Below the pieces are notes generated by a model that was given only the letters and a program-made list of their open reading frames with translations, was not told the DNA's origin and ran no database searches. Made by a program: the position numbers and the translations under genes. Shown piece by piece: positions 6,058 through 47,998 of a stretch of 64,000 nt of DNA. The DNA comes from Symbiobacteriaceae bacterium (GTDB taxonomy: Bacteria; Bacillota; Sulfobacillia; Symbiobacteriales; Symbiobacteriaceae). The stretch is from the NCBI GenBank assembly GCA_035628915.1, contig DASPIW010000057.1:252262-316261 (forward strand), written 5' to 3'. Each line of letters starts with the position of its first letter. Positions within the stretch are counted from its first letter, which is position 1.

Positions 6058-6089
6058 GCTAAAACAAGGGCGCCCCGGGGGCGCCCTTG
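6058..6089 (-). terminator. Rho-independent terminator closing the partner-switching operon
   Basis: Minus strand reads CAAGGGCGCCCCCGGGGCGCCCTTG followed by TTTTAGCC. It lies about 120 nt after the STAS stop at 6212 and upstream of the rsmB start. Confidence 0.7.
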
Positions 6090-6211
6090 CCATGTTCCCA
6101 CATGAGGAGCACGATGAGAAAGCTTGCGCAGCCGAAAGGCCAACCTTGGGGCGATGCTAGGCTAACCTTAGGGCCACAAAAGGGAAGCTCGCAGCGAGCA
6201 CCATCTGACCG

Positions 6212-6487
6212 CTACGCATCGATGACCACTTCGCGGATCCCCAATATGTCAAGAATGTCAATAATGTGTGAGCCAAACCCCTCAAAGACCAGCTGCTTTC
6301 CCATGCTGGCCATCTGCTGCTTCAACACGACCAGTCCACGGACGCCCGTGGAATCCAGGAATTCCATCTCCGTGCAGTCCACGACGATCCGGTCGCTCCC
6401 CTGGGCGGCAGCCTGAACCTGCTCCGTGAAACTGGTCACGGTGCTAATGTCCAGGCTACCAACAAATGTGATGCGCGCCTCGGCCAC
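6212..6487 (-). CDS. STAS-domain anti-sigma-factor antagonist-like protein (SpoIIAA/RsbV family)
   Basis: 91 aa. The motif EFLDSTGVRGLV retains the phosphorylatable Ser of the DS(S/T)G motif. The GTG start abuts the FapA stop (TGAGTG). Confidence 0.85.
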   Translation of the reverse strand: MAEARITFVGSLDISTVTSFTEQVQAAAQGSDRIVVDCTEMEFLDSTGVRGLVVLKQQMASMGKQLVFEGFGSHIIDILDILGIREVVIDA

Positions 6488-7633
6488 TCAGTTCACCTCC
6501 CCGGCTGGGCAGACCTCAAGTGCGTTGCCTTTCTGCCTTATTATCGTAGCCTGTGCCCCGGCACGCAGTCGCTCCGTCAGGTGCCCTACCTGCGCGACCA
6601 CCTCACTCGTGGCGCCGTCGACCCGAATGACCCCGCCTCCGCTCACACTCAGCACCGCCGACTCGGTCACCCGGGAAGCGGCAATGCTCAAACCTGCCCG
6701 CACTGTCCCGCCCTGCACATCGCCTTCGACCCTGACGGACTTGTCCGCCTCGACCCGGCAGCGCTTGAGATTGGCACCTGCCAACACAACGGAGCCCAGC
6801 GCCTTGACTACGGAGTCCTCAGCCGGTCCGCCGACAATGAACACATCCCGGTCCGCACTGCCGGCCGACTCCAGCTCCTGAATCGCTGCACCACAGAGAT
6901 TCAGGGCCGTTTCCACCTCGTCACGGGTCACGGTGAGAAAGGCGAACCCCGTGAACCGGTTGCGGAGGAGCCCGGTCAATTCGGTCAAGTTCCCCGCCAG
7001 GTACTCGTGGATCTGGCACCGCTTCACGGCTTCCGCCACGTGAACGGTGAAATCGGCAAAGCTGCGTACCGCCAGCACTTCCAGCAAGGGCTGCAAGTTC
7101 TTCGTCAAATCCAGCGTCCGGAACGACGGATGCCCTTTCAGCTCCTCCACGATCGATATGAGCCGCTGCAAGGAGGCCTGTACGATCTGGAGCTGTTCAA
7201 GGCTCAGGCGATACCGGTGGTGGTTGACGCCGGCGGTAACCGAAGCACCCATGCAGCCCTTGCGCAGCACAACGGAGCCCATGGCCTCCACCTGGGCCAT
7301 GATCACCTCCCCAAGGATTACCAGAGACCCATTGGCCTTCACCTTGGCGCCGCGCATAATGCTGCCGGTCACCACGACGTTGCCCGTCCCGGTTAGCGTC
7401 TGGCTCATTCCGATGTCGCCGTAATGGATCTCGGCGGATGTCACAGAAGCTTTGCCGTCGGAAACGACGGCCAGCCCCTCAAGCGTGGCGATCAAGCCAT
7501 GCTTGTTTGCAGCCTCTGCGGTTCCGGCGCCGGCGCGCGGCAAGGGATCGCCGGGACCGGCCTGAAAGACCATCGCCCCCCTTCGCACGGGAACGCCCGT
7601 CAGGAGTGCGACGCTGTCATCTGCCAAATTCAC
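6488..7633 (-). CDS. FapA/DUF342-family protein
   Basis: 381 aa. Beta-helix-like G-x-V/I repeats (GTGNVVVTGSIMRGAKVKANGSLVILGEVI, and again at the C-terminus) flank a coiled coil (LSLEQLQIVQASLQRLISIVEELKG). This is the typical DUF342 layout. Confidence 0.65.
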   Translation of the reverse strand: MNLADDSVALLTGVPVRRGAMVFQAGPGDPLPRAGAGTAEAANKHGLIATLEGLAVVSDGKASVTSAEIHYGDIGMSQTLTGTGNVVVTGSIMRGAKVKANGSLVILGEVIMAQVEAMGSVVLRKGCMGASVTAGVNHHRYRLSLEQLQIVQASLQRLISIVEELKGHPSFRTLDLTKNLQPLLEVLAVRSFADFTVHVAEAVKRCQIHEYLAGNLTELTGLLRNRFTGFAFLTVTRDEVETALNLCGAAIQELESAGSADRDVFIVGGPAEDSVVKALGSVVLAGANLKRCRVEADKSVRVEGDVQGGTVRAGLSIAASRVTESAVLSVSGGGVIRVDGATSEVVAQVGHLTERLRAGAQATIIRQKGNALEVCPAGEVN

Positions 7634-7640
7634 ACCTCCT

Positions 7641-8441
7641 TCATGCTGACGGCGGCGGACAGATCAGCTTTACGAGGAGGATCGTCACGCCTTTCGGTGA
7701 ACTGGCCAGCACCACCCGGTCCATGCACTTGAGCATTGCCGTGAATCCAAGGCCAAGGGACGGCTTGGTGCTGAAACCCGGCAACAGGGTTGCCAGGGGC
7801 AGGAGCGAGCGATCAAGGCCGGAGCCGTAGTCACGCACTTTGGCAACCCAGCTGTCTGTCGTCTTGATGAGCTCGAAATCGCCGCCGCCGGCGTGTTTGA
7901 GCGCATTTGTGACGGCTTCCGAGACACAGAGGGCCATTTCGGCCGTCTGCCTGCGATCGCCTCCCGCTGCGTTCATCTGTTCCGTCACCAGCCGGCGACA
8001 TAGCGGCACGTCGCCCGGTTCGCGCACCGGGTGAACCCATCGCTGCTCCGGCTGCCCCACCCATTCGGGGATTTCGCAATCCGGGACCAGGATCATGCGC
8101 CCGCCGGTCGCCGAGTAAACGACGTCACGATAAATGTGGGTAATGCTCATTTGGCATTGCTGAAGGAACCCGTCGAATCGGGAAAGGTCCCAGACCAGCA
8201 TCACGCCATGGCCGTCGGAAATAGGAAGGGCGTAAATCTGCAGTCGTCCGTCGGCCGTCACGACCATGCGCTTCTGCAGCCGACCCTCGGCAAACATGGC
8301 GTCCGCAGCGGACTGCATCGTCTGCACATGCCCTGACATGAGCGGATGGCGCGTCGATAATGGGGCGCCACGCCGGAGTGGAAAGTATGCGATCAGGTTC
8401 AGTAGATTAGCGAAAACATCCGGGGGGAGATCACCCCACAT
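7641..8441 (-). CDS. RsbW/SpoIIAB-like serine-protein kinase (HATPase_c_2) with an N-terminal domain of unknown function
   Basis: C-terminal half carries the N-box SEAVTNALKHAGGG, G1 VRDYGSGL and G2 SLGLGF. The N-terminal ~130 aa are unassigned. Start taken at the second ATG after GGGGGA. The 5' end overlaps the upstream ORF by ~40 nt. Confidence 0.75.
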   Translation of the reverse strand: MWGDLPPDVFANLLNLIAYFPLRRGAPLSTRHPLMSGHVQTMQSAADAMFAEGRLQKRMVVTADGRLQIYALPISDGHGVMLVWDLSRFDGFLQQCQMSITHIYRDVVYSATGGRMILVPDCEIPEWVGQPEQRWVHPVREPGDVPLCRRLVTEQMNAAGGDRRQTAEMALCVSEAVTNALKHAGGGDFELIKTTDSWVAKVRDYGSGLDRSLLPLATLLPGFSTKPSLGLGFTAMLKCMDRVVLASSPKGVTILLVKLICPPPSA

Positions 8442-9097
8442 TGACATTCCCCCTCTTCCGCCAGGCGATTGGGCAGCAAGGGCCTGCCCAGGGCGCTGGC
8501 CACAGCATGTTCTGTCTGAAAGGAGCAGGCAACCGGCAGTACGTCAATCATCGTCCCCAGGCTGGTGGGAACTGACCTGAGGACGCGGCCGATGGCATGC
8601 ATCGGAAGGGGTTGCAGGGAGACACGGATGAGCAGATCGACGCGAGTCCCTTCCGCCAGTTGGTCCTCACCCAGAAAGCTGACAGCCTGGTCCGCAATCT
8701 CCACCGAACGGCCGGAGTGCCACCGGGCCGTGCCGCTCTCCGCGTATCGGAGGTGCAGATCCACCTTGGCAACCTTTCCGCAGCACTCCCGGGGACCCAC
8801 CAGCCACAGCGGATAGCTGAGCCTGATCTCAGACTCCCCCACCACGGGCTGCACTGTCGCCTCAAAGGTGAGCTGTCTTTCGGGCACTTCGACCAGCACC
8901 TGTGCGGGGACCACCGGGAGGGGCGCACCGAAACGGAGCACCAGCCCGAATCCCCGATTTGTCCCAAATCTCGCCCTGACCGACTGCCGCCCTTGCGGCC
9001 GGTCAAAGGAGACAGTACAGGGACAGCCAGCTACCTGTGAAACAAGCCGTTGGAACGAGTCGCTTCCCAGGTCCAGTAGGACGGGAGAACTCCTCAT
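8399..9097 (-). CDS. PilZ-like two-domain protein (YcgR-like layout, non-canonical c-di-GMP motifs)
   Basis: ~232 aa. The second half, GRSVEIADQAVSFLGEDQLAEGTRVDLLIRV...AIGRVLRSV, follows the PilZ beta-barrel pattern. However, RxxxR is replaced by PRECCGK and D/NxSxxG by EIADQA. Start set at the ATG after GGTGGAG. Confidence 0.4.
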   Translation of the reverse strand: MRSSPVLLDLGSDSFQRLVSQVAGCPCTVSFDRPQGRQSVRARFGTNRGFGLVLRFGAPLPVVPAQVLVEVPERQLTFEATVQPVVGESEIRLSYPLWLVGPRECCGKVAKVDLHLRYAESGTARWHSGRSVEIADQAVSFLGEDQLAEGTRVDLLIRVSLQPLPMHAIGRVLRSVPTSLGTMIDVLPVACSFQTEHAVASALGRPLLPNRLAEEGECQCGVISPRMFSLIY

Positions 9098-9121
9098 CAG
9101 TATCACTCCACCCACACGGGC

Positions 9122-9910
9122 TCATTTTTTGTTATCACCAAATTCAACAACGGCGAGTGTCACGTCATCGCGGACCTCTCGGGCACGGGCTGCAACAGCG
9201 AAGAGGACGGCCTTGAGCCATTCCCGGCCACGTTGGCCGGTAACTGCCCGGACCAGCGACTCCAGGCCGGGGATTCCGAGTTCCCGTCCGTCGGACTCCC
9301 TCGCCTCCACGATCCCGTCGGAATAGACGACCAAACGGTCCCCGGGCTCCACAGCCACCACCTGTTCCTGGTATCGCCGGTTGGGGAGCATCCCGACTGA
9401 CACGCCGCGGGCCTCGATCCGAACGGTCGGATTCTCCCCACGCATCAGCCAGGGGTAAGGGTGCCCCGCACCCGCAACGGTAACCGTGCGGCTGGCCGGC
9501 TGATAGTCGGTACAGGAGAGGGTGACGAAGGCGCCCACCTGCTGCAGGTCCTCATACAGCATGTCGTTGGTGTGCTTGAGCAAGGCTCCGGGTGCAAGTC
9601 CGGCGTGCGTCGCGGATCGGACTGCCGATCGGACCATGGTCATGATCATTGCGGCGCCGAAGCCCTTCCCCATCACATCGGCCACAATCACTCTCAGACC
9701 GCCGTCCGAGAGCGGGAGAATGTCGAAGTAGTCGCCCCCGACGGCATAGTGAGGAATGCTGCAGCCGGCGGCTTCGGCCCCGGCCCCCGCAACACTCTTC
9801 ATGCCAGACATTAAGGCCTGCACCCGCTCAGCAAAACGCAGTTCCCGCTGCCATTGCACCTCGTCGGGTTCCTTGCGGGGCCAATAGGGGACCTCAGGAT
9901 GGCAGCTCAC
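9122..9910 (-). CDS. SpoIIE/RsbU-type PP2C phosphatase
   Basis: 262 aa. Motifs: GGDYFDILPL, VIVADVMGKGFGAAMIM, VVYSDGIVEA, DDVTLAVVEF. Confidence 0.88.
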   Translation of the reverse strand: MSCHPEVPYWPRKEPDEVQWQRELRFAERVQALMSGMKSVAGAGAEAAGCSIPHYAVGGDYFDILPLSDGGLRVIVADVMGKGFGAAMIMTMVRSAVRSATHAGLAPGALLKHTNDMLYEDLQQVGAFVTLSCTDYQPASRTVTVAGAGHPYPWLMRGENPTVRIEARGVSVGMLPNRRYQEQVVAVEPGDRLVVYSDGIVEARESDGRELGIPGLESLVRAVTGQRGREWLKAVLFAVAARAREVRDDVTLAVVEFGDNKK

Positions 9911-9934
9911 CTTGTATCCCCCCTGCTCGCTTGC

Positions 9935-10240
9935 TTACCCCTGGTCGCTGATCGCCTCATAGAACCCGAGGATGCCCAGCATCTCTTTGAGATCATCACT
10001 CAGATTGTTGACCGCCACCTGCGCCCCTGATGCCTGCCAGCGCACCACGGCCTTGATCAGGCCGCTGACGCCGGTCGAATCGATAAAAGCAAGACACCGG
10101 CAGTCCAGTTCGATCTGCTTGCCGGAGCCGGTCCAGCGGGCGGTGGCAGCCTCGAACTCCTCCACGGTTTCGATCGCCAGTTCGCCGTCGACCTTGATGG
10201 TCACTTGTTCGTCGGTTTCCATGCAGGATAGAGCTAACAC
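9935..10240 (-). CDS. STAS-domain anti-sigma-factor antagonist-like protein
   Basis: 101 aa. Motif AFIDSTGVSGLI (DSTG phospho-site). GTG start 7 nt after GGGGGG, overlapping the upstream stop by 7 nt. Confidence 0.85.
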   Translation of the reverse strand: MLALSCMETDEQVTIKVDGELAIETVEEFEAATARWTGSGKQIELDCRCLAFIDSTGVSGLIKAVVRWQASGAQVAVNNLSDDLKEMLGILGFYEAISDQG

Positions 10241-12324
10241 ACCAATTCCCCCCTTTGCGTGTACGGTGGGCCATCGCTCCCCCGGGAAGCCGCCTGGCCC
10301 GGCCGACGCTCAAGAACGATCACCGTTCCATCGCCAGCCGTGTGCACATACAGCCGGTCCACGAACCGGAGCATCACGGAGAAGCCTCTGCCCAGAGACT
10401 TCTGGGTCGAGTATCCCTCCAGGAGAATCGCCCGCGGGAGGATGTTGTAAGGAATCCCCTGTCCCCGGTCGCTGATGACTGCCCGGAGGGCCCCATCGTG
10501 GAGCCGGAGGGAAAAATGTCCGGAGCCGGCGTGCTTGAAGACATTGGTCACCGCTTCGGAGACGCATACCTTCAGCTTGAAAGCTTCGGCTTGCGAAAAA
10601 CCCATGGCGGGCGCCTGCTCTTCGATAAGCGCTCTGGCCAGAGCGGCGTCGTTGGGTGTCGCCAAGACGGCTTCACCGAGCACAGCCCCCTCGGCCAGCA
10701 GTGCCCCGCTCTCCTCTTCATCGATCAGGGTCAGCCGTCCACCGGTGACCACGGACATCACATCACGGTAAGCCCGAAAGATCGTCCTGGTCTGTTCACG
10801 CTCCACTGCCAGCGCCTCAGTCACATCGAACAGCAGTACGCTGGCGGCATCCACGCCTGCAGGAATCACGTAAACGTCATAGGCGACACCGCCGTCGACC
10901 ACATGCTGACGTCCCGGCAGTTGCCGCTGCACGGCCTCCCGTGCCAGGCGGAGGACTTCCGCACCGGCCGGTGGTTCGACCCGGTCACCAAGAAAGTTGG
11001 TAAACCCGGTACTGCTGTCGTAGGAGAGGACATGCCCGACACCCATTGTCTTGAGCAATTGCGAGCTGCGCACGGTCTGCAGGAGCTTGTTTTGCAGCAT
11101 GGCCACGCCGGCATCTTCGATCATTGCGGCGGCCCGGGCGGCGGGGAGCTCGGTCTTCTGCAGCGCAGCACTCACCACGTCTCCCAGTCCCGGGTCAATG
11201 GCCGTCCCGACCAATCTGGGCAGTAGGGTCATCTTGGCATCGCGATCGCCTTCCAGATCCTCAAGCACTTCCGCCGCCGCCAGAATCCGGGCGCCGAGGG
11301 GGATCGCATCCCCGCTCAGTCCGTCCGGATAGCCGGAGCCATCCCAGGCCTCATGATGGCTGCGGATGAGCCGGGCAACGGGGCCCATCCCCTCCATGCG
11401 CAGGACGAGCGCTTCCCCCAGCTCCGGATGGGCCTTGTAGGCCTCCCGGTCGGCCAGGGTCGGAATCACTTTCCTGGCCATGACGGCCACGACCCGCGGG
11501 TCGATTTCCGCCTCACCGACGTCGTGCAGCAGGCCCGCCGTGAAGATCGTGTCGACCTCCTCGGCCGGGAGCTTCAGCGCCTCGGCCATGGTGCGGGCCA
11601 AGAAAGCCACGCGTCCGGCATGGCTTTCGGCGGCTCCCGTCTTCTTTTCCAGAATCTCGCAGAGGCGGCCCACAACGTTGAGGTGGACCCGTTTTTGCTC
11701 CAGGTACAGATTGGTGGCATACCGGAACGCCAGAAGCCCTGCGCACTGCAGCAGCAGCGCCAGCCAGCCTCCGCTTCGGAACATATATAGCATGGGCAGG
11801 AGCAAAATCGTCGAACCGATGACACCTACATATGACTGCTGAATAATGTCAAGAATGAGATCGCGGAACGGACGCCGTGTGGCAAGACGGAAGACGAGGG
11901 CCAGCAAGAACGTATTGACCACGAAGAACCCAAGGCTGGCTGCGAGCAGTGTTAGCGGTCCCCCACCGAGCGCAGCGCTGACCAGGTGAAACCCGCCGGC
12001 GGACACCAGGAACTGACCGAAATTGAAAACTTTCTGGACCGGCTTCTTGACTTTGAGGACGATCACCATGGCCGCAGCCGCTTCGGCGAGATAGGCTGCG
12101 CCGGGCCCGTGCACGCCATACGCCAAAAAGACGATGGTCGACCCCAGCGAGAAGTTGACCCGGTTCGGCAGGGTCATGGCCAGCCGCTCGAACAGCACGG
12201 CCAGCGCTGCCATACCCAGGGCAGACAAAAGGTCAGCCGCCGGAATCGTCGGAACAAAGGCCGCCAGAAGCAGGGTTCCCGCCAACGCCAGACTCCATGC
12301 CAACAGGTGGACTGAGCGAGGCAT
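10234..12324 (-). CDS. Polytopic membrane protein fusing an HD-GYP c-di-GMP phosphodiesterase domain to a C-terminal RsbW-like serine kinase module
   Basis: 696 aa. About 6-7 hydrophobic segments in aa 1-205. HD-GYP signature: LLHDVGE ... HHEAWDGSGYPDGL. C-terminal kinase motifs: SEAVTNVFKHAGSG, ISDRGQGI, SLGRGF. Confidence 0.85.
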   Translation of the reverse strand: MPRSVHLLAWSLALAGTLLLAAFVPTIPAADLLSALGMAALAVLFERLAMTLPNRVNFSLGSTIVFLAYGVHGPGAAYLAEAAAAMVIVLKVKKPVQKVFNFGQFLVSAGGFHLVSAALGGGPLTLLAASLGFFVVNTFLLALVFRLATRRPFRDLILDIIQQSYVGVIGSTILLLPMLYMFRSGGWLALLLQCAGLLAFRYATNLYLEQKRVHLNVVGRLCEILEKKTGAAESHAGRVAFLARTMAEALKLPAEEVDTIFTAGLLHDVGEAEIDPRVVAVMARKVIPTLADREAYKAHPELGEALVLRMEGMGPVARLIRSHHEAWDGSGYPDGLSGDAIPLGARILAAAEVLEDLEGDRDAKMTLLPRLVGTAIDPGLGDVVSAALQKTELPAARAAAMIEDAGVAMLQNKLLQTVRSSQLLKTMGVGHVLSYDSSTGFTNFLGDRVEPPAGAEVLRLAREAVQRQLPGRQHVVDGGVAYDVYVIPAGVDAASVLLFDVTEALAVEREQTRTIFRAYRDVMSVVTGGRLTLIDEEESGALLAEGAVLGEAVLATPNDAALARALIEEQAPAMGFSQAEAFKLKVCVSEAVTNVFKHAGSGHFSLRLHDGALRAVISDRGQGIPYNILPRAILLEGYSTQKSLGRGFSVMLRFVDRLYVHTAGDGTVIVLERRPGQAASRGSDGPPYTQRGELVC

Positions 12325-12355
12325 GGCACACCCTCCTTCCGGCGGCCTCGACCTG

Positions 12356-13657
12356 CTACTTTTGACCCGGAGCAGGAACGTGGACGAAGCCGTAACCGTA
12401 CCGCGGGTCGGGCAAGTCGGTTACCAGCGGAACAGCCCGGGCCTTCAGCAACGCCTCAACACGGGCCGGGCCGGCGCCGGGATGCTCGGCGATGATCAAT
12501 GCAGCAACACCGGTGGCAAAGGCGGCAGCCTGGGAAGTTCCGGTGCCGACGGCATAGCCGCCCTTGTAGGTACTGATGATCCCGACGCCCGGCGCCACCA
12601 CGTCAAGCTCCTTGCCCGTGGCTGAGAAGGTAGCCCGCTGCAGATTGGGGCCGACCGCTCCCACTACCAGGGAGTCGCCCAGCCGGGCCGGGGAATCCAG
12701 CGTGTTGCCTCGGCCGTGGGCCTTTCCGTTATTACCGGCGGCAGTCACCACGGTAATGCCTGCGGCGGCGGCCCGGTCCAGGGCCTGGTCCAGGGCCTGG
12801 CTCTTGCCCCGGGCGCCGACGCTCAGGTTGATCAGGTCCATCCCGTTTTCGATCGCCCAGTCGATCCCACGGACCAAGTCGCTGACGTCGCCTTCGCCGT
12901 TGGCGCCCAGCACCTTCACAGCGTACAGCGAGGCAGCGGGAGCGACACCGTACAGCCCGTGTTCTCCGTTTGCGGCCAGAATGCCGGCCATGGCGGTGCC
13001 GTGGCCGTTGTCGTCGGTGTACTCGCCGTCACTGATCAGGTTGACGCCGCCGGCGACATTCAGGTCAGGATGGGTCACATCAATGCCCGTATCAAGGATC
13101 GCCACCTTGACGCCCTGGCCGCGGTCGCCCGGATCCCCCCCGTTCGCGGCGCCAACTGCACGCACTCCCCAGTCGACGGCAATCTGGTGACCGTCCGTCC
13201 AGGAAAGCTGGTCGACCCACGAGAGCTGGTCGGTCCATGAGAGCTGGTCCGTCCACGAGAGCTGGTCCGTCCACGAGAGCTGATCCGTCCACGAGAGCTG
13301 ATCCGACCACGAGAGCTGATCCGACCATGAGAGCTGGTCCGACCACGAGAGTTGGCTAGACCAGGTCGTCGGCGCCAGCGAGACCCGCTGATCTTTCTCC
13401 ATGAACGCAATCCGGTCGTCCTTCGCCAGGGCGGCTGCCTGCTCCGGCGTAAGCTGGGCCACAGCCAGGTTGAGCCGCTCCAGCTTCTTCTCCAGAGCCC
13501 CGCCCCGGCCGGCGATGGCCGATTCACCATTCGGGCCTGTTACCCCAACCAGGTACCGATCCGTGGAGACTCCTTTGGCTCCGGCACTCCCGGCCATCGA
13601 CCCGAAGAGCAGGGACAGAACCAGCGTGATTCCGAGACATTGCCGCAAACCATGCAT
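12356..13657 (-). CDS. Secreted subtilisin-like serine protease (S8) with I9-like propeptide and a hexapeptide repeat linker
   Basis: Catalytic triad contexts: AILDTGID, DDNGHGTAMAG, GTGTSQAAAF. Signal peptide MHGLRQCLGITLVLSLLFGSMAGSAGA, from the ATG at 13657 (GGGGGGA upstream). The track ORF extends to 13723. Confidence 0.9.
   Translation of the reverse strand: MHGLRQCLGITLVLSLLFGSMAGSAGAKGVSTDRYLVGVTGPNGESAIAGRGGALEKKLERLNLAVAQLTPEQAAALAKDDRIAFMEKDQRVSLAPTTWSSQLSWSDQLSWSDQLSWSDQLSWTDQLSWTDQLSWTDQLSWTDQLSWVDQLSWTDGHQIAVDWGVRAVGAANGGDPGDRGQGVKVAILDTGIDVTHPDLNVAGGVNLISDGEYTDDNGHGTAMAGILAANGEHGLYGVAPAASLYAVKVLGANGEGDVSDLVRGIDWAIENGMDLINLSVGARGKSQALDQALDRAAAAGITVVTAAGNNGKAHGRGNTLDSPARLGDSLVVGAVGPNLQRATFSATGKELDVVAPGVGIISTYKGGYAVGTGTSQAAAFATGVAALIIAEHPGAGPARVEALLKARAVPLVTDLPDPRYGYGFVHVPAPGQK
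13199..13363 (-). repeat. In-frame tandem array of nine 18-bp units plus a partial unit, encoding (D/S)QLSW(S/T/V)
   Basis: Plus-strand units read ccacgagagctggtccgt with single-base variants. Translated: WSSQLSWSDQLSWSDQLSWSDQLSWTDQLSWTDQLSWTDQLSWTDQLSWVDQLSWT. Confidence 0.95.
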
Positions 13658-13885
13658 CAGGATCCCCCCTTCCAAATGACGAAGCCCATTCCCCCACGTG
13701 GGGGAATGGGCAAGCCATTGCACTCACGTGGTAACCCGGCTGCCATACCCCTGCGGCTTAGGCCCGTGGCTTTGCGTCCCTGTCTTTCGGCAGGTTTGCC
13801 TTTTTCACTTGCGGAAGGTCTTCTTACTCTAATCATACTCAAAGGGATTACATTTTCAAGTAGTATCAAACAGTAACGTTAATGG

Positions 13886-13915
13886 TTGGAATTTATGTGG
13901 TTTATGGTGTATCCT
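13886..13915 (+). promoter_or_regulatory. Candidate sigma-A-type promoter for the pseudo-receiver-PP2C gene
   Basis: TTGGAA (13886-13891), 18-nt spacer, TATCCT (13910-13915), in an AT-rich divergent intergenic region about 35 nt upstream of the ATG at 13951. Confidence 0.35.
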
Positions 13916-13950
13916 TGTAGTTGCCAGTTGTCACGGAAGGAGGGGCCGCC

Positions 13951-15090
13951 ATGCCAATCCTGGTGGCCGGCCCGCCGGAGGAACAGGCGGAGCTGCGCCA
14001 GTGCTTGGGCCGGGCAGGGTTTCCCATGGTGTGCCTGGCTTCATCGATCGAGGACGTCGAGGAAGCGTTGGGGCTTTGGAACCCCCTTGCCCCTGCTACG
14101 AGCATGGACCTGGTTATCCTGGGCTGCGGCCTGCCGCAGGCCGGCGTGCTTACTTTGTGCCGGGAAATCCGGCGTTGGGATCGCTGGAGCGGCCTGAGCG
14201 TGGTGGTAATGGCGGACGAGCAAGGTCGGCCCGAGCCGGACGCCAGCTTCGATGCCGGGGCCACCGAGTGGATCAGCGGCAGCCTGGACCGGCCGGAGAA
14301 CCTGGCCCGGATCAGACGGGCGGTCAAGGTGAACGAGACTGCCTCCCACAGTCAGAAGGTGGAGCGCCAGCGTGAGGAGGAACTGAGCCTCGCCCGCCTG
14401 GTTCAGCGAAGGGTTCTCAGTAAGCCAATCTATACGGATTCCATTGAGATTGAGGCAGAGTATATCCCCCACGGTGCGCTCTCCGGCGATATGTACTTCT
14501 GGTGCGAGATCAGTCCCGGCCGCTACGGCATTCTGCTGACCGATGTGATGGGTCACGGCCCTTCCGCTTCCTTGGCGTGCATGGCGCTTCGGACCATCAT
14601 GCATGCGCTGGTGACCCGGGTGGTTGACCCCGTGGTCGTCCTCGAGGAGATGGAAAAGCACATTCACCTGGTCCACCCCCACTCCGCAACGGCCCTCTAT
14701 GTCGTCATCGACACCGTGAACCACACGGTCGAATATGCGAACGCCGGGCACCCGCCCGGTCTGCTGCTGCAGGCTTCCGGACGGATCGATGTCATGGAAC
14801 GTACGGCGCTGCCACTAGGCTTTGACCTGCCGGGGCGCCCGCAGAAGCGCATCCTGCCGTTGGAAGTGCCGGCCCGATTGGTGCTCTATACCGACGGTCT
14901 GGTCGAACAAAAGGGCTGCTCCATCCGCAGCGGCATTACACAATTGCAGGAGCGGCTCGGAGCCCTTCGTAGGCTGGGCACCAGCCAGTTCATCGCCGCG
15001 ACGGTGATGGCATTCAACAAGCACCTGGCCGTCGACGATGATCTGACCCTGATTACCGTCACGGTGCGCGAGTCGTCGCCGCAGCAATGA
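13951..15090 (+). CDS. Receiver-like domain fused to a SpoIIE/RsbU-type PP2C phosphatase
   Basis: N-terminal CheY-like fold whose acidic pocket is replaced (ILVAGPPEE; DLVILGCGLP). C-terminal PP2C motifs: LSGDMYFW, ILLTDVMGHGPSASL, LVLYTDGLVE, DDDLTLITV. Start at the ATG after GGAAGGAGG. Confidence 0.85.
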   Translation: MPILVAGPPEEQAELRQCLGRAGFPMVCLASSIEDVEEALGLWNPLAPATSMDLVILGCGLPQAGVLTLCREIRRWDRWSGLSVVVMADEQGRPEPDASFDAGATEWISGSLDRPENLARIRRAVKVNETASHSQKVERQREEELSLARLVQRRVLSKPIYTDSIEIEAEYIPHGALSGDMYFWCEISPGRYGILLTDVMGHGPSASLACMALRTIMHALVTRVVDPVVVLEEMEKHIHLVHPHSATALYVVIDTVNHTVEYANAGHPPGLLLQASGRIDVMERTALPLGFDLPGRPQKRILPLEVPARLVLYTDGLVEQKGCSIRSGITQLQERLGALRRLGTSQFIAATVMAFNKHLAVDDDLTLITVTVRESSPQQ

Positions 15091-15126
15091 GACCCGTGGG
15101 AGGGAGATCCCACGGGTCTCTTTTTG
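15089..15126 (+). terminator. Rho-independent terminator (bidirectional position between convergent genes)
   Basis: GAGACCCGTGGGA-gggaga-TCCCACGGGTCTC followed by TTTTT. The stem starts inside the TGA stop codon. Confidence 0.85.
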
Positions 15127-15128
15127 CG

Positions 15129-17492
15129 CTATGCTCCCTGACGCGCATCTTCCTGCTGCCACCTCCACTGCAGCAGCGCCTCAACGCTTAGCGGCTTGGG
15201 GAGTGAAGGCGGCGGTCCGCCCACTGTCAGGAGCGTGAACCCTCTGGCCTGAGCTTCAGCCATCAGGGTCGGGGCATCACAGTCGGTACCCTCCGGCAGA
15301 TCTGCGTCCAGCACCAGCAACTGCCCCGACTGCCCGGCCGCCGTGTCGCGGAGCCACGCTGTGGCGCTGCGGCAATCCCGGAAGTTGGCAACTGAATGAC
15401 CCCGGGTGACAAGCGCTTCCCCAATCTGCCCGCCCAGGACGTCATCTGCCAGGACCAACAGCACATCGGCGCCGGCGGTGCGGTACTCGATTCCGGCTGG
15501 CAGCACGCGGCCCCGGCCGCGGGACTTAGCCTCATAGAGCGCCCGGTCTGCAGCCCGTGTCAGGGTCAGCAGGTCCGTACCGTCGCGCGGGAACTGAGCG
15601 ATTCCGCCGCTGAACGATACCCGGAACGACTGCCCTTCCGGTGTGAGGAACTCTTCGCGGCGCAGTTCCTCGAGCACCTCGGCCAGACGGTGTACCCCGT
15701 GGTGGCGTGCCATCCCGTACATACCCAGCGCAAACTCTTCTCCGCCCCAGCGCGCGACGACATCCTCGCCGCGAAACTTTCGCAGCAACAGCTCGCCCAA
15801 CCGTCGTAACACCGCATCGCCCACGGTGTGGCCAAACGCATCGTTGACCCGCTTGAAATGATCAAGGTCGAGGATGCCCAGGCTGACGGGTTGCTTGTGC
15901 CGTTCGGCCAGTTTCAGGAAGTGTTGGAGGCTCCGGTTGAACTGGCGGCGATTGCCAACGCCTGTCAACGGGTCGGTATCCGCCAGCCTCTGAAGCAGTT
16001 TCGTGCGTTCCAGCCGATTCTGGATGCGCGTCACCAATTCCGGGCCCACGATGGGCTTGCCGACAAAATCATCCGCGCCGGCAGCAAAAACGCGGTGGAT
16101 CATGGATTGCCCCGCGGACGCCGTCAGAAACAGGACAGGGATCGTGCACCAGCGCGGATCGTTACGGATCACCCGGCAGAGCTCCAGCCCGCTGATGTGC
16201 GGCATATCCACATCCAGCACCAGCATATCCGGAGCGACGTTCTCGATCGTCTCCCAAAAACGCAGCGGATCGGATAGGGTCACGAGTTCCAATCCTTCCG
16301 GAGCCAGCAGCGAACGCAGGACTGCCAGTTGCTCCGGGTCGTCATCCACTGCGAGTACCTTGGCCCGCTTGGCCCGCTGCTGCCCGCTGAGCACGGACAT
16401 GACCGCCTCCATCACCTGAGAGGGCGGAACGGGCTTCTCGAGGAAGCAGCGCCCGCCAAGCCGGGCCACTTCCACCCGGTCGATGAGCCCGCCTCTGGCC
16501 GTCAGGACGACGGTGGGAATCGGGGGGGTCGCCTCGCAGAGCTCCCCGAGCAACGAAAGCCCGGTGTCTTCACGATCGGCAAATGACAGATCCAGCACCA
16601 CGGCAGATGGGCGGCATCGTGCGATGGCCGCCCGCGCCTCAGCCACGCTGTATTCCGTTGCGGCCTTAGCATTCCAATGGCCGGCTTCTGCCGCCAGCCG
16701 GTCGCACAGCTCCCGATCGTCATCCACAATCAAGATCTGAAGCGCGTCCTGCCCCGGCTCAAAGGACTCCTCAGCCGACTCAGGCAGGTACCGATTCAGC
16801 TCCTTCGCCAGCGCGTCGGCCAACTCGGCTAGGCGCCGGCCCCTTGCCGCATCCACAGGCAGCCCGGCCTGCAGAAGGTGCTCGATCCGGCGGGCCAGGT
16901 CTGAGCCGACCCCGAAGCCGAACGTCCCCAGCGAGCCGGCCAACTTATGCGCCTCCCGCTCCGCCTGGATGCGCAGTTGCTCATCCAGGGCGCCGGTCCC
17001 CAACACCCGGCAAGCGTTCTGCAACCGGGTCACCCGCTCGATGACACGGCCTTTGGTGCGGGCCCAGACGTCCATCACCGGTGCGGGCAGAGGTTGCCGC
17101 TGCGGCGAAACGGCCGCTGGTTCGGGCAGACCCAACTCATGTGCGATGTGCTCGCCCAGTTCCCGGATCTCCAGAGGATGCAGCATGAGCCTGCTGACGC
17201 CGAACTGACTGACGAGGCGCCTGGGAAGCCCTCCGCCCGGCCCTTCGGCCAGGCAGTATATCAGGGAGACTCGCTGGCCCGAGGGACTGCTCCGAAGGTG
17301 GCCGAGGAGTTGCTCGCCGCTCATGTCGCTGAGTTGGTGGTTGACCACGGCCAGGGAAATCGGTTCGGCTTCCAACTGCAGCAGCGCCTCCTGCCCGCTC
17401 AGCACATGGGCAACCCGCGCCTGTGGTGCCACATGGCCGACGAGGTCTTGGGCGACCTCTTCCGGCAGCCCGATCAGCAGAATCTTACACAC
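15129..17492 (-). CDS. Multi-receiver diguanylate cyclase: pseudo-REC - HPt - REC - REC - GGDEF - REC-like
   Basis: 787 aa. HPt motif: AHKLAGSLGTFG. Two canonical receivers: ILIVDDDRE..VVLDLSF and VLAVDDDPE..LVLDVDMPHISG. GGDEF domain with an intact GGEEF (15732-15746) and an RGED I-site five residues upstream (15762-15773). Confidence 0.9.
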   Translation of the reverse strand: MCKILLIGLPEEVAQDLVGHVAPQARVAHVLSGQEALLQLEAEPISLAVVNHQLSDMSGEQLLGHLRSSPSGQRVSLIYCLAEGPGGGLPRRLVSQFGVSRLMLHPLEIRELGEHIAHELGLPEPAAVSPQRQPLPAPVMDVWARTKGRVIERVTRLQNACRVLGTGALDEQLRIQAEREAHKLAGSLGTFGFGVGSDLARRIEHLLQAGLPVDAARGRRLAELADALAKELNRYLPESAEESFEPGQDALQILIVDDDRELCDRLAAEAGHWNAKAATEYSVAEARAAIARCRPSAVVLDLSFADREDTGLSLLGELCEATPPIPTVVLTARGGLIDRVEVARLGGRCFLEKPVPPSQVMEAVMSVLSGQQRAKRAKVLAVDDDPEQLAVLRSLLAPEGLELVTLSDPLRFWETIENVAPDMLVLDVDMPHISGLELCRVIRNDPRWCTIPVLFLTASAGQSMIHRVFAAGADDFVGKPIVGPELVTRIQNRLERTKLLQRLADTDPLTGVGNRRQFNRSLQHFLKLAERHKQPVSLGILDLDHFKRVNDAFGHTVGDAVLRRLGELLLRKFRGEDVVARWGGEEFALGMYGMARHHGVHRLAEVLEELRREEFLTPEGQSFRVSFSGGIAQFPRDGTDLLTLTRAADRALYEAKSRGRGRVLPAGIEYRTAGADVLLVLADDVLGGQIGEALVTRGHSVANFRDCRSATAWLRDTAAGQSGQLLVLDADLPEGTDCDAPTLMAEAQARGFTLLTVGGPPPSLPKPLSVEALLQWRWQQEDARQGA

Positions 17493-17889
17493 GGCTGCCC
17501 CCTTCTGCCCGGTCCCAGCCCAAAATGGCTGCGATCTCGCCGGCCAGCGTCATGGGATCGAACGGCTTGGCGATCACGCCGGAGATCGGGAGACCTTCGA
17601 GGCGCTTGCGGTCGGTCGCCTGCACCTTGGCTGTCAGGAAAATGACCGGAACACCGGCCGTCTCATGGTGGCTCCGCAAATGCCGAAGCGTGCTCGGGCC
17701 GTCCAGATCGGGCATCATCACATCCAACAGAATCGCATCCGGCGGCGTGGCAACAGCCGTTCGAATGCCTCCCTCGCCCGATGCGGCAGTAACGATCTCC
17801 CAGCAAGTGGAGACTTCCAGAGTCACCTGCGCAACCTCGCGAATATCTTCGTCATCATCAACAATCAATAGCCGGCGATTTCCCGTCAC
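17485..17889 (-). CDS. Single-domain CheY-like response regulator
   Basis: 134 aa. Motifs: LLIVDDDEDI, ILLDVMMPDLDG, VIFLTAK, AKPF. Overlaps the downstream gene by 8 nt. Confidence 0.92.
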   Translation of the reverse strand: MTGNRRLLIVDDDEDIREVAQVTLEVSTCWEIVTAASGEGGIRTAVATPPDAILLDVMMPDLDGPSTLRHLRSHHETAGVPVIFLTAKVQATDRKRLEGLPISGVIAKPFDPMTLAGEIAAILGWDRAEGGSRV

Positions 17890-20800
17890 CTGTGGTCCCT
17901 CCTGGCTGCGATGAAAATGGGGTGAGGAGCGACGCGATGCGCTTCTCGAACTCGGCGGGGGATATGCGGCCCTTTGTCAGAAACACGGTATTGCCCGTCT
18001 GCAGGGATTGACGGTCTGTCTCACTCAGATCCCTGGCCGTGTACACGACCACGGGCACCCTGCTCAGACACCCATGCCGGCGGAGCCAATCGACGACGGC
18101 AAAACCGTCGACTTCCGGCAGGTACAGGTCAAGCACCAGCAGGTCGGGCGCCGCCTGCTGCGTCATGGCAATGGCCTCGCTACCGGTGCGTGCGTGGGAT
18201 GTCCTGGCCCCATGGCGTTGAAACATGGTCAGCAAGACACTTGCCAGATCCGGGTCATCTTCTACGATCAGGACCTTCGCACCGAGGCTCTGGCGAACCA
18301 TGGCCCGCTCCAGGGCGTGCACCAGGGCCGTCTCATTATGCGGGTCGGCAACCCAATCCACGCCGCTGCCAGCCTCCGTGACGCCCGCCTCTGCCGACCA
18401 GCTGCTGCAGATGATGACCGGCAGATCGCCGGCGCCCGGGGCGGCCTTGATCGCGGCGATGGTCTCCACCCCCGCCTTGTGCGGGCCGTCCAGATTGACC
18501 AGCACGGCGTCAGGCCGCCGCAGACGCAACTCCGCCAGAGCCTCCTGACTGGATCCGGCGGTCGCCACCTGGTATCCCCGGGTTAGCAGGGTCGGTCGGA
18601 GCGTCTCCACTCTGTCAGGGGCGAAGAGGCACGCCAGAACATGAGGCCGGGCCGGTTGAGCGGGTTGCGCCGGGTGAGCCGCCTCGATTCGGGCCCTCGG
18701 GTGTGGCGCGCCAGACGCAGGCAGGGTGAAGAAGAACCGGCTCCCCTTACCCGGTTCCGACTCCGCCCAGATTCGCCCGCCGTGCTGCTGGATAATCGAC
18801 CGGCAGATGGCCAGTCCGAGTCCAGTACCGCCCTTCTGACGTGAATCAGACGCATCGACCTGCCGGAACCGCTCGAAGATGGACTCCAGTTGGTCCGACG
18901 GAATGCCCCGCCCCTGGTCAGCCACTTCAAAAAGATAGTGGTCATCTTGCCGGCGGGCGGTCAGCGAGACGGTACTGCCGGCCGGAGAGAATTTGATGGC
19001 GTTGGAGAGCAGATTGGTCAGCGTCTGCGAGATTCGGTCCGGGTCTGCCTGAATTCTTGCCCGGAGCGGCTCGACCTCTAGGCTCACGGCGGCTTTTGCC
19101 GCGATCGCCTGCAGGAATTCGACCGCCTGGGTCATGATGGCCGCAGCGTCGCATTCCTGAATCTCCATCTGCACGGTGCCGGATTCCATCCGCTCAATGT
19201 CAAGGATGTCGTTGATCAGTCGCACCAGTCGATCCGAGTTTGTGGCAGCGATCTCCACCATGCGCCGCGCTTTCGGGCCTAGTTCACCGAGCGCTCCGCT
19301 GGCCAGCAGGCCCAGCGAGCCACGAATCGAGGTCAGGGGCGTCCGGAGCTCATGGCTGACGACCGAAACAAACTCACGCTTCATCTGGTCGACTGCCCGC
19401 CGCTCCGTGATATCCCTGAACGTGATCACTGCCCCGACGACGTTGCCGGACTCCTCAACGGGCGTGGCAGTGTATTCCACCGGTACCGCACTGCCGTCGC
19501 GGCGCCAAAACAGGGACTCCCGGGCGCCCAGGGCGACGCCGTCCAGGGCGACAACGCAGACCGGACACTGCCCGCAGACGAATTCGGCACGGTCGCCGAA
19601 GATCGTATGGACGGATTGGCCGGTCAGTTCAGGGATCTCATAGCCCAGAATGTGGGCGGCGGCGGGATTGACAAACGTCGTACGCCCGTTCAGATCCACC
19701 CCGCAGATGCCGTCTCCCGCCGCGTTCAAAATCAGTTCCAGCCGCTGGCTGAGCCGTTCCAACTCTGCTTGCTGCCGCTGCAGCGCCTCACGCTGTTCCA
19801 TGAGCTGAACGTTCTGTGCGGCCAACGTTTCCTGCTGTGCAGACAAGGCCTCGTTAGTCGCCAGAAGCTCCTCATGCTGTGCTGTCAGTTCTTCCTGCTG
19901 CGCCTGCAACTCCATATGGGCTTCTGCCAATTCGGCGTGGCCGTCCGAGAGTTTCCCATTGGCCTCCTCCAGCTTCCGTACCAGGCCCCACTGCTCGCGT
20001 GCCGAAGCCAGGGCAATGCCGCTGGCGACGACGACGGCCACCAGTTCCAGAAGCGCCTGGTTCAACGATACCTCCCAGGTCTCCGTACCCTGCATGAAGT
20101 GCGATGTCTCTCCAAAGACCACCACGGCGAGAAGCAGGTACAGGAGGCGACGAGACGCAAGCGGACCGAGAGCACGCGCGGAAAGGGCGGGCACGACCAC
20201 CAGCAGTGCGGCAATGCTCTGGCCGACAGCGCTGCGGCTGGCAAAGAGCACACCGCCGATTACCGTCAAAATGGCGACATGCCAGAATGCTCGCTGAAGG
20301 GGTGTGCCGGCCTCGGGTGCGATCCAACGGACGAGAAACGTGTAGCCGATAATCGCGGCAATGCCCAGATTTGCGACGGGCGATGCGGTTTCGGCGTGTA
20401 CGGCGGTTGCGGAAACAGCGGAGATGCAGAGCGCCATGGCCGGCGCCCACGCCTCCAACCGGTGAATCACCCCTGGCAATATCTCACCCGCCAGTTCGAC
20501 CGGTTCGGTGCGGTGTCCGCCCGGTGCCGGGTGTCGGTGGGAGGCCCCTTGGGGCCTCCAGCCACTAAGGGTGGTCAGGCACCAGATACTGAACGATACG
20601 GCGGTAGTCCAGTAGCCGGCTACGGAATGGACGGCGACTAACGTCAGCGGAAATACCAGCGCCAACGGCCGGAGGAGCCAACGATAACGCTCGGCCCAGA
20701 CAATGCCAAGGGCGAACGGCACCTGGCAAATCGCCCCGAGAAACCCAAACGCAATATGGATGGGGAACACCGGACTGAGAACACCCAATACGGGGTGGTC

Positions 20801-24780: not shown

Positions 24781-24970
24781 GCTGTAGTCCCCCTGGTGCA
24801 ACATGGGTTGTGCTGAATTTTACGGGTAGGTTGGTATTGGATTCTAAAATAGCATATCTAAAGGTAGTGCGCTACCGTTACCCGCGTATCCGCAAAGCTT
24901 GCTTTTCCAGGGGGTCAAGGTTCTTGGTGCGTTTCTGCAAACTGCTACATCCGCTGTGTGCTGACATAAC

Positions 24971-24999
24971 GAAAGGCGGTGCATATGGTATGCACCGCC
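24971..24999 (-). terminator. Rho-independent terminator after the SUI1-like gene
   Basis: Minus strand: GGCGGTGCATA-cca-TATGCACCGCC followed by TTTCGTTATG, 16 nt after the stop at 25015. Confidence 0.7.
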
Positions 25000-25014
25000 G
25001 TGTCGCTTGGTCCC

Positions 25015-46471: not shown

Positions 46472-47182
46472 GTGAGACAGCGCTCCGGCGGCATGGTGAT
46501 CCTGGTTATCAGCATCGCCCTGGGCCTCATCGCGGCGTTGCTGTCCGTTACCTTCCTCAAGGGCGTGGCCAGGTCCACCACGGTGCTGGTGGCCACGCAG
46601 GAGATTCCCGCCTTTACCCCGCTCACGGCCGGCATGTTTACGGTCCAGCAGATGCCCAGCGGCGCCGTTCCCGCCGATGCCGTCAAGGAGGTCTCCGCCC
46701 TGAACGGCCGGTATGCCCGGACGATCATCCTCAAGGGCGATGTGGTCAGGCAGGGTCACCTGGCAACTGCCAGCGGCTCTTCCGGCTCCCTGGCGGCCAA
46801 GCTGACCGAGACCGGTCAGGCCGGCATGCGGGCCCTGGCGATCCCGGTCGACAACGCGACGGGCGTCGGCGGCACCATTCAATCCGGCGACAAGGTAGAT
46901 ATCATCGCAGCGGTCCGGGTCGAACGGCAGAACGGCCCCGCCACCACCTTCTCCAAGGTGATCGGCAAGGCGATTCCGGTGCTGCACCGCACGGAAGCGG
47001 AAGGCACCGCCAAGGCCACGGTGGTCGTCATGGTCACCCCGGCACAGGCGGAAGAGATCGCTTATGCGCAGCTCGCCGGCACTATCTATCTCGCGACCAA
47101 CCCGTATCGGGTGGATACCGAGGAGGAAAAGGCGACTACGGGCGTGACGCCCGATTCATTCATGCAGCGCTACGGGAGGTGA
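46472..47182 (+). CDS. cpaB: Flp pilus assembly protein CpaB/RcpC (SAF domain)
   Basis: 236 aa. N-terminal TM segment VILVISIALGLIAALLSV followed by a SAF-like VLVATQEIPAFTPLTAGM. Confidence 0.85.
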   Translation: MRQRSGGMVILVISIALGLIAALLSVTFLKGVARSTTVLVATQEIPAFTPLTAGMFTVQQMPSGAVPADAVKEVSALNGRYARTIILKGDVVRQGHLATASGSSGSLAAKLTETGQAGMRALAIPVDNATGVGGTIQSGDKVDIIAAVRVERQNGPATTFSKVIGKAIPVLHRTEAEGTAKATVVVMVTPAQAEEIAYAQLAGTIYLATNPYRVDTEEEKATTGVTPDSFMQRYGR

Positions 47183-47188
47183 TGGCGG

Positions 47189-47989: not shown

Positions 47990-47998
47990 AGGAGGTGA

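Follow-up and report, generated by a model that had tools for sequence, protein, structure and literature searches.

SpoIIAB and RsbW phosphorylate the serine of the DSxG motif in SpoIIAA and RsbV. Partner switching without a sigma factor is a recognised category as well, and SypE/SypA, HsbR/HsbA and BtrW/BtrV are reviewed in it (PMC8256260). In this study, we analyzed a 64,000-nucleotide stretch of DNA from a Symbiobacteriaceae bacterium (GenBank assembly GCA_035628915.1, contig DASPIW010000057.1, positions 252,262 to 316,261 of the forward strand), hereafter the window, which carries a seven-gene operon on the minus strand (12324-6212). The operon encodes a 696-aa protein that joins a membrane domain, an HD-GYP domain and an RsbW-like kinase, together with two STAS proteins, a SpoIIE-type PP2C phosphatase, a PilZ-like protein, a second kinase and a FapA-like protein. 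At a probability of about 0.55, we consider this cassette to be a conserved Bacillota partner-switching unit that does not end on a sigma factor and has the FapA-like protein as its likely output.

The HptB-HsbR-HsbA-(FlgM/HsbD) system of Pseudomonas aeruginosa toggles the STAS protein HsbA with a PP2C and an RsbW-type kinase, takes its input from a hybrid histidine kinase and histidine phosphotransfer (Hpt), and ties flagellar control to cyclic di-GMP (c-di-GMP) metabolism (PMC5085249 and general background). The window is similar in that a hybrid histidine kinase, an Hpt-containing protein and a PP2C with a receiver domain (REC-PP2C) are encoded near the operon. According to the same sources, however, HsbR is a single REC-PP2C-kinase protein, the system is proteobacterial, HsbD is a separate cyclase and STAS partner whereas the window has a predicted phosphodiesterase fused to the kinase, and the flagellar partner is the anti-sigma factor FlgM and not FapA (PMC5085249). 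The SypE/SypA pair of Vibrio fischeri is likewise sigma-less, with an RsbW-like kinase and a PP2C acting on a single-domain STAS protein for a non-transcriptional output (PMC8256260). In contrast to the window, SypE is a cytoplasmic kinase-REC-PP2C protein, the output is the Syp polysaccharide, and there is no HD-GYP, FapA or membrane sensor. In Pseudomonas SiaABCD, the PP2C SiaA and the kinase SiaB control a c-di-GMP enzyme through a small adaptor (PMC8457831); unlike the window, this system has a cyclase as its output and consists of four separate proteins.

The Bacillus SpoIIE-SpoIIAA-SpoIIAB-sigma F system shares with the window a SpoIIE-family PP2C, a STAS protein with the DSxG serine and the SpoIIAB-like kinase fold, and a fusion of PP2C to a MinC_C-like FapA protein, found in a related cassette, recalls the coupling in SpoIIE of a phosphatase to a division-site targeting module. 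The window differs from it in having no sigma factor, in a kinase that is membrane-anchored and fused to HD-GYP, and in scores well under the cut-offs of the NCBIfam equivalogs (39.6 versus 135 for SpoIIAB and 31.5 versus 491 for SpoIIE). SiaC of the Pseudomonas system is not known to belong to the Pfam STAS proteins, nor SiaB to the GHKL kinases of RsbW type. The N-terminal half of the fusion, a multi-helix membrane domain followed by HD-GYP, resembles the MASE9-HD-GYP proteins TM1467 and Streptomyces HdgA, but these stop after HD-GYP or run into GAF-GGDEF, the MASE9 match of the window protein is sub-threshold (E 0.088; 13.1 bits, cut-off 24.3), and no protein of this kind is described with a PAS-like and RsbW-type kinase C terminus. 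Vibrio FapA is needed for polar flagellum assembly. The Vibrio vulnificus protein has the same Pfam FapA beta-solenoid domain as the window protein and is sequestered by a phospho-dependent partner, dephospho-EIIAGlc (general background; cited in PMC6877527); the window protein, in contrast, has no FapA_N domain, does not lie in a flagellar operon and has a STAS protein rather than a phosphotransferase system component as its presumed regulator.

The cassette would act much like the known non-sigma partner-switching systems, yet it is a member of none of those compared. Three features set it apart: the membrane-bound four-module kinase protein, a FapA/MinC-like protein as conserved partner, and the link to an S8 protease with a peptide array in Symbiobacteriaceae-like lineages. 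In the literature we found no published description of the cassette or of the HD-GYP::kinase fusion, an architecture for which a sequence-only reading of this DNA had named no characterised example, and no published pairing of FapA with partner switching. Galperin and Chou, in their census of HD-GYP architectures, nowhere use the words HATPase, anti-sigma, RsbW or STAS.

The HD-GYP-kinase fusion and its operon

Open reading frames were called over the whole 64 kb, and both the called frames and concatenated pseudo-proteins were scanned with Pfam. In operon order, the features are as follows.

10234..12324, minus strand: 696-aa fusion of a MASE9-like membrane domain, HD-GYP, a PAS-like domain and an RsbW/SpoIIAB-type serine kinase
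11242..11658, minus strand: HD-GYP core of the fusion (Pfam HD_5, 2.4e-28, aa 223-361)
10312..10662, minus strand: kinase domain of the fusion (Pfam HATPase_c_2, 5.9e-14, aa 555-671)
9935..10240, minus strand: STAS1, 101 aa (STAS, 2.4e-13), phospho-site FIDSTG, overlapping the fusion stop codon by 7 nt
9122..9910, minus strand: SpoIIE-type PP2C, 262 aa, no sensor domain (SpoIIE, 9.5e-49)
8399..9115, minus strand: divergent PilZ homologue, 232-238 aa, no Pfam hit, forming an accessory pair with kinase 2
7641..8447, minus strand: kinase 2, 266-268 aa (HATPase_c_2, 1.6e-11)
6488..7633, minus strand: FapA/DUF342-type beta-solenoid protein, 379-381 aa (FapA, 1.3e-13, 51.7 bits versus a cut-off of 31, plus MinC_C)
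6212..6487, minus strand: STAS2, 91 aa (STAS_2, 4.8e-14), phospho-site FLDSTG, start codon abutting the FapA stop
6061..6091, minus strand: intrinsic terminator, a 13-bp G+C stem followed by UUUU (dG -28.2 kcal/mol, z -3.5)

The sequence-only reading had described these seven packed minus-strand genes with a clean terminator behind them, and all seven frames lie where it had put them, with the terminator at 6091-6061. From the fusion down to STAS2, successive genes overlap by 7 nt, stand 24 nt and then 6 nt apart, overlap by 49 nt, stand 7 nt apart and finally abut (0 nt).

The fusion consists of a seven-helix membrane region (aa 1 to ∼229), HD-GYP (∼223-404), a PAS-like domain with a long helix (430-526) and the kinase (∼547-673). 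Its AlphaFold2 (AF2) model, built on a 12-sequence alignment (mean predicted local distance difference test score, pLDDT, 80.7), gave the same order, with about seven membrane helices (aa 3-229), HD-GYP, a disordered linker, a PAS-like alpha/beta fold (430-500), a long helix and the kinase. In a Foldseek search with this model, the HD-GYP domain matched 4mcw and 9rbz and the kinase matched the SpoIIAB/RsbW structures 1til, 1th8 and 6m36. An HD-GYP domain fused to an RsbW-like kinase, as first proposed from the letters, is therefore supported both by the Pfam families HD_5 and HATPase_c_2 and by fold. The kinase boxes also stood up to comparison: across 42 aligned family members, the N box (E590, N594), G1 (D619xG621xG623) and G2 (G645xG647) are invariant or nearly so, with E590, N594, D619, G621 and G647 invariant and G623 and G645 nearly invariant. 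The best NCBIfam names were SpoIIAB, RsbW and RsbA for both kinases of the operon and anti-sigma antagonist for the STAS proteins.

In the HD-GYP domain, the same 42 members show little or no variation at H235, H267-D268, H299, H323-H324-E325, G329, G331 and P333, and residue Y332 is Y or F. The metal ligands defined in PmGH (H189, H221, D222, H250, H276 and H277) are kept, and the equivalent of its D305 is E352, a conservative change at a position that varies over the family (E, N, D or S). The contacts to substrate are eroded. The lysine of HDxGK is glutamate in the window protein (HDVGE) and in 18 of the 42 members, KPG is gone from the window protein (ARKVIP there) and missing in its clade, and RxY[K/R], which is reported to be largely responsible for the c-di-GMP specificity of HD-GYP domains (10.1101/2021.11.05.467447), is not conserved across the 42 members, the window protein having RDAK there. 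HdgA, also without the HDxGK lysine, is reported to hydrolyze c-di-GMP, and the best sequence match of the window domain in the PDB is the cyclic GMP-AMP (cGAMP)-specific V-cGAP3. Since the eroded substrate contacts stand beside a kept metal centre, the domain is likely a metal-dependent phosphodiesterase, with a specificity for c-di-GMP that is not assured.

Proteins 27-32% identical to the window protein, related to its N-terminal half, combine Pfam MASE9 with HD_5. Inside the predicted helices of the membrane domain, the polar residues Q97, N101, Q104 and N137 are invariant, and an LPN...FSLGS hairpin is conserved; the domain also weakly resembles RibU, the S component of an ECF transporter (Foldseek 5kbw, TM-score 0.66 on the target). 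These features of sequence and model hint at an intramembrane site for a small ligand.

The remaining parts of a phospho-switch are present with their motifs. Both STAS proteins have the DSTG site ascribed to them, and F[ILVA]DS[ST]G with its D-S-[ST]-G core was kept in all 19 STAS proteins from 13 cassettes; the PP2C translation contains GDYFD, DVMGKG, SDG and DDVT, including the metal-binding aspartates. With the kinase boxes intact, the switch looks functional as far as its motifs can tell, as the sequence-only reading had held, and profile annotation matched HD_5, HATPase_c_2, STAS, SpoIIE and FapA in their respective proteins. Kinase 2 is paralogous to the C-terminal half of the fusion, which comprises its PAS-like and kinase domains (33% identity across 200 aa, E 2e-32).

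The PilZ assignment fared less evenly. The protein had no Pfam match at E up to 0.1, yet it is homologous to the syntenic protein of another cassette, L001 (BLASTP 4e-17), itself a PilZ match at 2.4e-12. Both c-di-GMP motifs, RxxxR and DxSxxG, are lost in the window protein (RECCG and EIADQA at those positions), whereas L001 keeps both (RLSPR and DLSLTG) and the orthologue at locus L089 keeps them in part (RKVPR and FISRAG). Its single-sequence AF2 model had a pLDDT of 34, too low to use, and a word-indexed homologue search returned only the query, a method too insensitive for fast-evolving proteins. The same limit applies to the word-indexed search with the FapA profile, which returned four proteins only. 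By profile, the FapA-like protein matches MinC (1hf2, 1.6e-7). Pfam scans showed neither FapA_N nor Jag_N in it, an N-terminal region that the FapA proteins of the Paenibacillus dauci and Thermincola cassettes do have.

No Sigma70 family was matched in any called frame of at least 80 aa across the window, nor was a Sigma70 domain found in the annotated flanks of the orthologous cassettes L001, L002 and L004; neither the operon and the window nor any orthologous cassette encodes a sigma or anti-sigma target. The absence of a sigma/anti-sigma pair from the operon and window is what the sequence-only reading had stated. It had also taken a sigma-less switch as noteworthy, and this does not stand, because non-sigma partner switching is already known and a missing sigma factor is not in itself surprising.

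A conserved cassette linked to FapA

A word-indexed search yielded 14 clusters that combine HD_5 with HATPase_c_2, and an exhaustive HMMER search of 1.84 billion representatives gave end-to-end alignments with the fusion for ∼40 clusters (at 50% identity), whose proteins are 640-724 aa long. The family occurs in Caldinitratiruptor microaerophilus, Aquibacillus albus and Halalkalibacter nanhaiisediminis, and a genome scan added Paenibacillus dauci, P. wulumuqiensis and eight Saccharibacillus species; all relatives are annotated merely as 'HD domain-containing phosphohydrolase'. A unique, one-off fusion was rejected on this ground. The architecture, of which the sequence-only reading had named no characterised example, has no published description that we found and at the same time is not unique, with members in cultured Bacillota.

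Neighbourhoods were compared, and 80 genome loci were scanned with profiles built from the cassette proteins. At least 10 independent contigs that differ in their flanks carry the same gene set, so the neighbourhood itself is conserved. The main arrangements are listed below.

Locus L001 (fusion 52% identical): the same seven genes
Locus L002 (fusion 55% identical): fusion-STAS-PP2C-FapA-STAS
Loci L004/L005 (fusion 46% identical): fusion-STAS-[PP2C::FapA, 674 aa]-STAS
Locus L008 (Symbiobacteriaceae): fusion-PP2C-FapA-STAS, STAS1 absent
Locus L011 and others (Paenibacillaceae): REC-PP2C / FapA (Jag_N + FapA_N + FapA) / STAS / fusion
Locus L010 (Thermincola): FapA-STAS-kinase-STAS-HD protein-PP2C-PP2C
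Locus L009 (Clostridiales metagenome-assembled genome): FapA-STAS-(membrane)kinase-PP2C

Paenibacillus cassettes have a second REC-PP2C, and in Saccharibacillus the order is REC-PP2C / FapA / STAS / fusion. From this comparison, FapA, STAS, the PAS-like kinase of this family and PP2C form the invariant core. HD-GYP is usually, not always, fused to the cassette kinase. STAS1 is missing from L008, whereas STAS2 is found in every complete cassette, L008 included. PilZ and kinase 2 form an accessory insert, present in the window, L001 and L089; PilZ is absent from L002, L004, L008 and all cassettes outside the Symbiobacteriaceae-like group, and it was rejected as a core output for this reason. An anti-phage defence system was rejected as well, since PADLOC gave generic subtilase and HD matches only.

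Three observations tie FapA to the switch. In every lineage examined, the FapA gene is directly followed by a STAS gene, with an overlap of 8-14 nt in L001, L002, L004, L008 and L010, abutting ends in the window, and a gap of 8-97 nt in L009 and the Paenibacillaceae. Of 29 family-type kinases (those with at least 95 bits to the family profile), 12 have a FapA gene no more than 6 kb away, versus none of 51 generic RsbW-like kinases, 47 of which have a STAS neighbour. Moreover, at L004/L005 (8432-10456), a single 674-aa protein joins the cassette SpoIIE-type PP2C to the FapA/MinC_C-like protein. This Rosetta-stone fusion, whose length and domain set form one 90%-identity cluster in the word-indexed database (P0275, four member sequences), argues that phosphatase and FapA act in one complex.

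Proposed mechanism and alternative explanations

In the proposed mechanism, the kinase module would phosphorylate the STAS proteins on the serine of their DSTG site and the PP2C would reset them, as may the nearby (pseudo)REC-PP2C, fed by an adjacent phosphorelay. The phosphorylation state would decide whether a STAS protein is held by the kinase or is free for another partner, for which the FapA-like protein encoded with it is the likeliest candidate. A process that depends on FapA would therefore be controlled post-translationally, be it the assembly or placement of flagella or, because of the MinC_C-like fold of the protein, another function at the pole or division site. This output would be coordinated with the hydrolysis of a nucleotide second messenger by HD-GYP on the same polypeptide. 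In the window lineage, the accessory PilZ homologue and kinase 2 would add a second kinase input, probably responsive to c-di-GMP in relatives with intact PilZ motifs; these motifs are degenerate in the window genome. A SpoIIE-like variant, in which FapA localises the phosphatase, would be allowed by the PP2C::FapA fusion and the MinC_C-like fold. The wiring to c-di-GMP that the sequence-only reading had drawn is borne out only in part: the fusion is real and keeps its metal centre and GYP motif, whereas the PilZ protein is accessory and has lost its motifs, and the HD-GYP substrate contacts are eroded.

Several points weigh against FapA as the output of a sigma-less, c-di-GMP-linked switch. 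Of the 12 FapA-linked genomes, nine belong to close relatives within the Paenibacillaceae, which leaves only about four independent lineages in support of the FapA link. The window FapA-like protein is without FapA_N and Jag_N and lies outside any flagellar operon, no flagellar genes being found by Pfam scans of the called frames in the window, which makes its cellular role uncertain. HD-GYP has no KPG and its RxY[K/R] is unconserved in the family, so the substrate may not be c-di-GMP. A target sigma factor, finally, may be encoded elsewhere in the genome. Classical partner switching onto such a distant factor (for example sigma-28, sigma-F or sigma-B), with FapA a bystander or sigma-28 co-regulator, would account for the anti-sigma names of the best kinase matches (SpoIIAB, RsbW and RsbA) and the anti-sigma antagonist names of the STAS proteins, as well as for a kinase fold that matches SpoIIAB in its complexes with sigma-F and SpoIIAA; in addition, FapA genes commonly lie beside the sigma-28 gene in a sub-module of flagellar operons (PMC11607428). 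We regard it as unlikely, however, because neither the window nor the annotated flanks of L001, L002 and L004 contain a Sigma70 domain, the cassette moves among genomic settings that are unrelated and brings no sigma gene with it, one of the kinases is tethered to the membrane, both kinases carry an extra PAS-like domain, and the linkage to FapA is specific to this kinase family.

That family specificity, with the PP2C::FapA fusion, the overlapping or abutting genes and the recurrence of one set and order in at least 10 contigs with different flanks, also bears on a chance juxtaposition of common signalling genes without a functional unit; STAS, RsbW-like and PP2C genes are abundant in Bacillota, yet the comparative data effectively refute this explanation. 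The HD-GYP domain might instead be the regulated output, switched by STAS or phosphorylated STAS at the kinase module, with FapA (PP2C-fused in one lineage) a mere localisation scaffold. HD-GYP and kinase do share one polypeptide in ∼40 clusters, the metal ligands and GYP motif are conserved, the Thermincola HD protein is a separate gene inside the same cluster, and the PP2C::FapA fusion and MinC_C-like fold suggest targeting that resembles SpoIIE at the polar septum. The Thermincola and Clostridiales relatives, however, keep FapA-STAS-kinase without a fused HD-GYP, and the link among these three is therefore more basic than that to HD-GYP; with its substrate-binding motifs eroded as well, HD-GYP makes an improbable output. 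Somewhat less doubtful, though still tentative, is the suggestion that HD-GYP is no c-di-GMP hydrolase at all and serves as a metal/redox or nucleotide sensor of the kinase, or hydrolyzes another nucleotide such as cGAMP or pGpG. The absence of KPG in the window clade, the glutamate in HDxGK, the variable D305 equivalent, the unconserved RxY[K/R] and the match to V-cGAP3 all point this way, but the window protein still has R-D-A-K at the RxxK position, HdgA is reported to be active while lacking the lysine, and the neighbourhood is full of GGDEF/EAL genes.

The upstream protease and genomic setting

The unit is probably larger than seven genes. A conserved S8 protease gene lies 31 nt upstream on the same strand, with a conserved divergent REC-PP2C gene beyond it. 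To that extent the seven-gene operon is packed as the sequence-only reading had it but probably includes one gene more. The features upstream are these.

12356..13723, minus strand: secreted S8 subtilase (Peptidase_S8, 4.3e-55) with signal peptide, I9-like propeptide and catalytic domain
13193..13355, minus strand: 18-nt tandem repeat, 9.1 copies (Tandem Repeats Finder), encoding the hexapeptide array of the S8 protein
13832..13859, minus strand: sigma-70-like promoter candidate, TTGAAA-16-TATGAT (10/12 matches; a consensus match only)
13921..15090, plus strand: pseudo-receiver::PP2C, 389 aa (SpoIIE, 3.2e-38; weak REC match), divergent from the S8 gene

A GGAGG ribosome-binding site lies in the gap between the S8 and fusion genes. 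The promoter candidate, in the 197-nt divergent intergenic region that separates the S8 and REC-PP2C genes, is the probable start of an eight-gene unit. The receiver of the window REC-PP2C is degenerate, the phospho-acceptor aspartate and the acidic pair being missing (VAGPPEE, ILGCGLP), and its Paenibacillus counterparts have canonical receivers. The window, L089 and L091 share the divergent REC-PP2C/S8 arrangement, and the cassettes of the Paenibacillaceae are flanked by REC-PP2C genes too.

The S8 protein carries about nine tandem (S/T)DQLSW hexapeptides, which follow the I9-like propeptide and precede the DWG that opens the catalytic domain, a position that we take, by analogy with subtilisin BPN', to be the autoprocessing (pro/mature) junction. 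An S8 orthologue stands in the same position in L001, L002, L004 and L088, with arrays of 8-11 copies of xDQ(L/F)(S/T)W. The S8 genes found elsewhere lie at L001 8652-9920, L004 4656-5966, L002 1-867, L088 1531-2874, L089 3-428, L090 1353-2003 and L091 5879-6304. When two consecutive array units were sought in 241 million metagenome contigs, only four contigs were returned, and in each the hit is an S8 gene that adjoins parts of the cassette (fusion, HD-GYP gene, REC-PP2C or PilZ-kinase 2). Recent repeat slippage without selection was rejected, because the peptide core is kept between lineages with 46-55% fusion identity and within arrays nearly every codon difference at positions 2-6 of the units is synonymous. 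The array may serve as a peptide signal that the protease itself processes, or its repeats may bind the wall or act as a linker.

The protease with its array may supply an extracellular or membrane signal to the switch. One elaboration, which we think rather improbable, is a peptide circuit in which S8 autoprocessing frees the hexapeptides, and either these or the protease activity would be sensed by the MASE9-like domain and passed to the HD-GYP::kinase output. The last residue of each array unit is aromatic and would fit the P1 site of subtilisin, and the copies would be chopped during autoprocessing; the fusion would then hydrolyze a cyclic dinucleotide and reset STAS phosphorylation, controlling FapA-dependent flagellation or cell-pole behaviour. 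If true, this would be a new quorum- or density-sensing input, with protease and pheromone precursor in one gene and a sigma-less switch behind it.

At an analogous actinobacterial locus (L035 6516-10900, a Thermoleophilia metagenome-assembled genome), an S8 protein with C-terminal KFKWT repeats is followed by MASE9::PP2C, a PAS-like RsbW-type kinase and STAS. The MASE9 match there reaches 25.5 bits, above the Pfam cut-off. Here, for a second time and independently, an S8 protease with Trp repeats is paired with a partner-switching module of MASE9 type.

The operon lies inside an insertion of ∼19 kb (window 6200-25000) between rsmB and SUI1 / Zn-peptidase / fmt / def / priA. Besides the S8 and REC-PP2C genes, the island encodes REC-Hpt-REC-GGDEF, a single REC, a hybrid histidine kinase and PAS-GAF-GGDEF-EAL, and GGDEF-EAL or EAL genes are also found near cassettes L001, L004 and L006. 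This signalling island interrupts a conserved gene string (rsgA-prkC-stp-rlmN-rsmB // fmt-def-priA), and the G+C content at third codon positions is 0.69-0.78 in its genes versus 0.81-0.84 in the flanking housekeeping genes. Elsewhere in the window, a complete Tad/Flp pilus cluster (46472-52865, plus strand; CpaB/RcpC, TadZ-like ParA ATPase, CpaF, TadB, TadC, TadE and TadG-like) has downstream of it a protein with copper-amine-oxidase N-terminal-like domains. A 304-aa open reading frame without a Pfam hit (35874-36788, minus strand) is extremely Gly/Thr/Ala-rich, with GTTG and AGG runs and a lipoprotein-like N terminus.

What is unexpected at this locus is the conserved kinase-hydrolase fusion, the link to FapA and the peptide array borne on a protease; the missing sigma factor will not surprise a specialist. 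The S8-linked array is conserved and unexplained, and it could reveal a new source of peptide signals. If FapA is indeed the output, a FapA/MinC-like structural regulator would join the few known non-sigma outputs of partner switching, and the cassette would provide a regulatory handle on the poorly understood FapA/DUF342 family. With the kinase fused to a second-messenger hydrolase, nucleotide turnover in Gram-positive bacteria would be tied, directly and in a way open to testing, to protein phosphorylation and to motility or the biology of the cell pole, and the occurrence of the family in cultured Paenibacillus dauci, Saccharibacillus, Caldinitratiruptor, Aquibacillus and Halalkalibacter makes experiments feasible.

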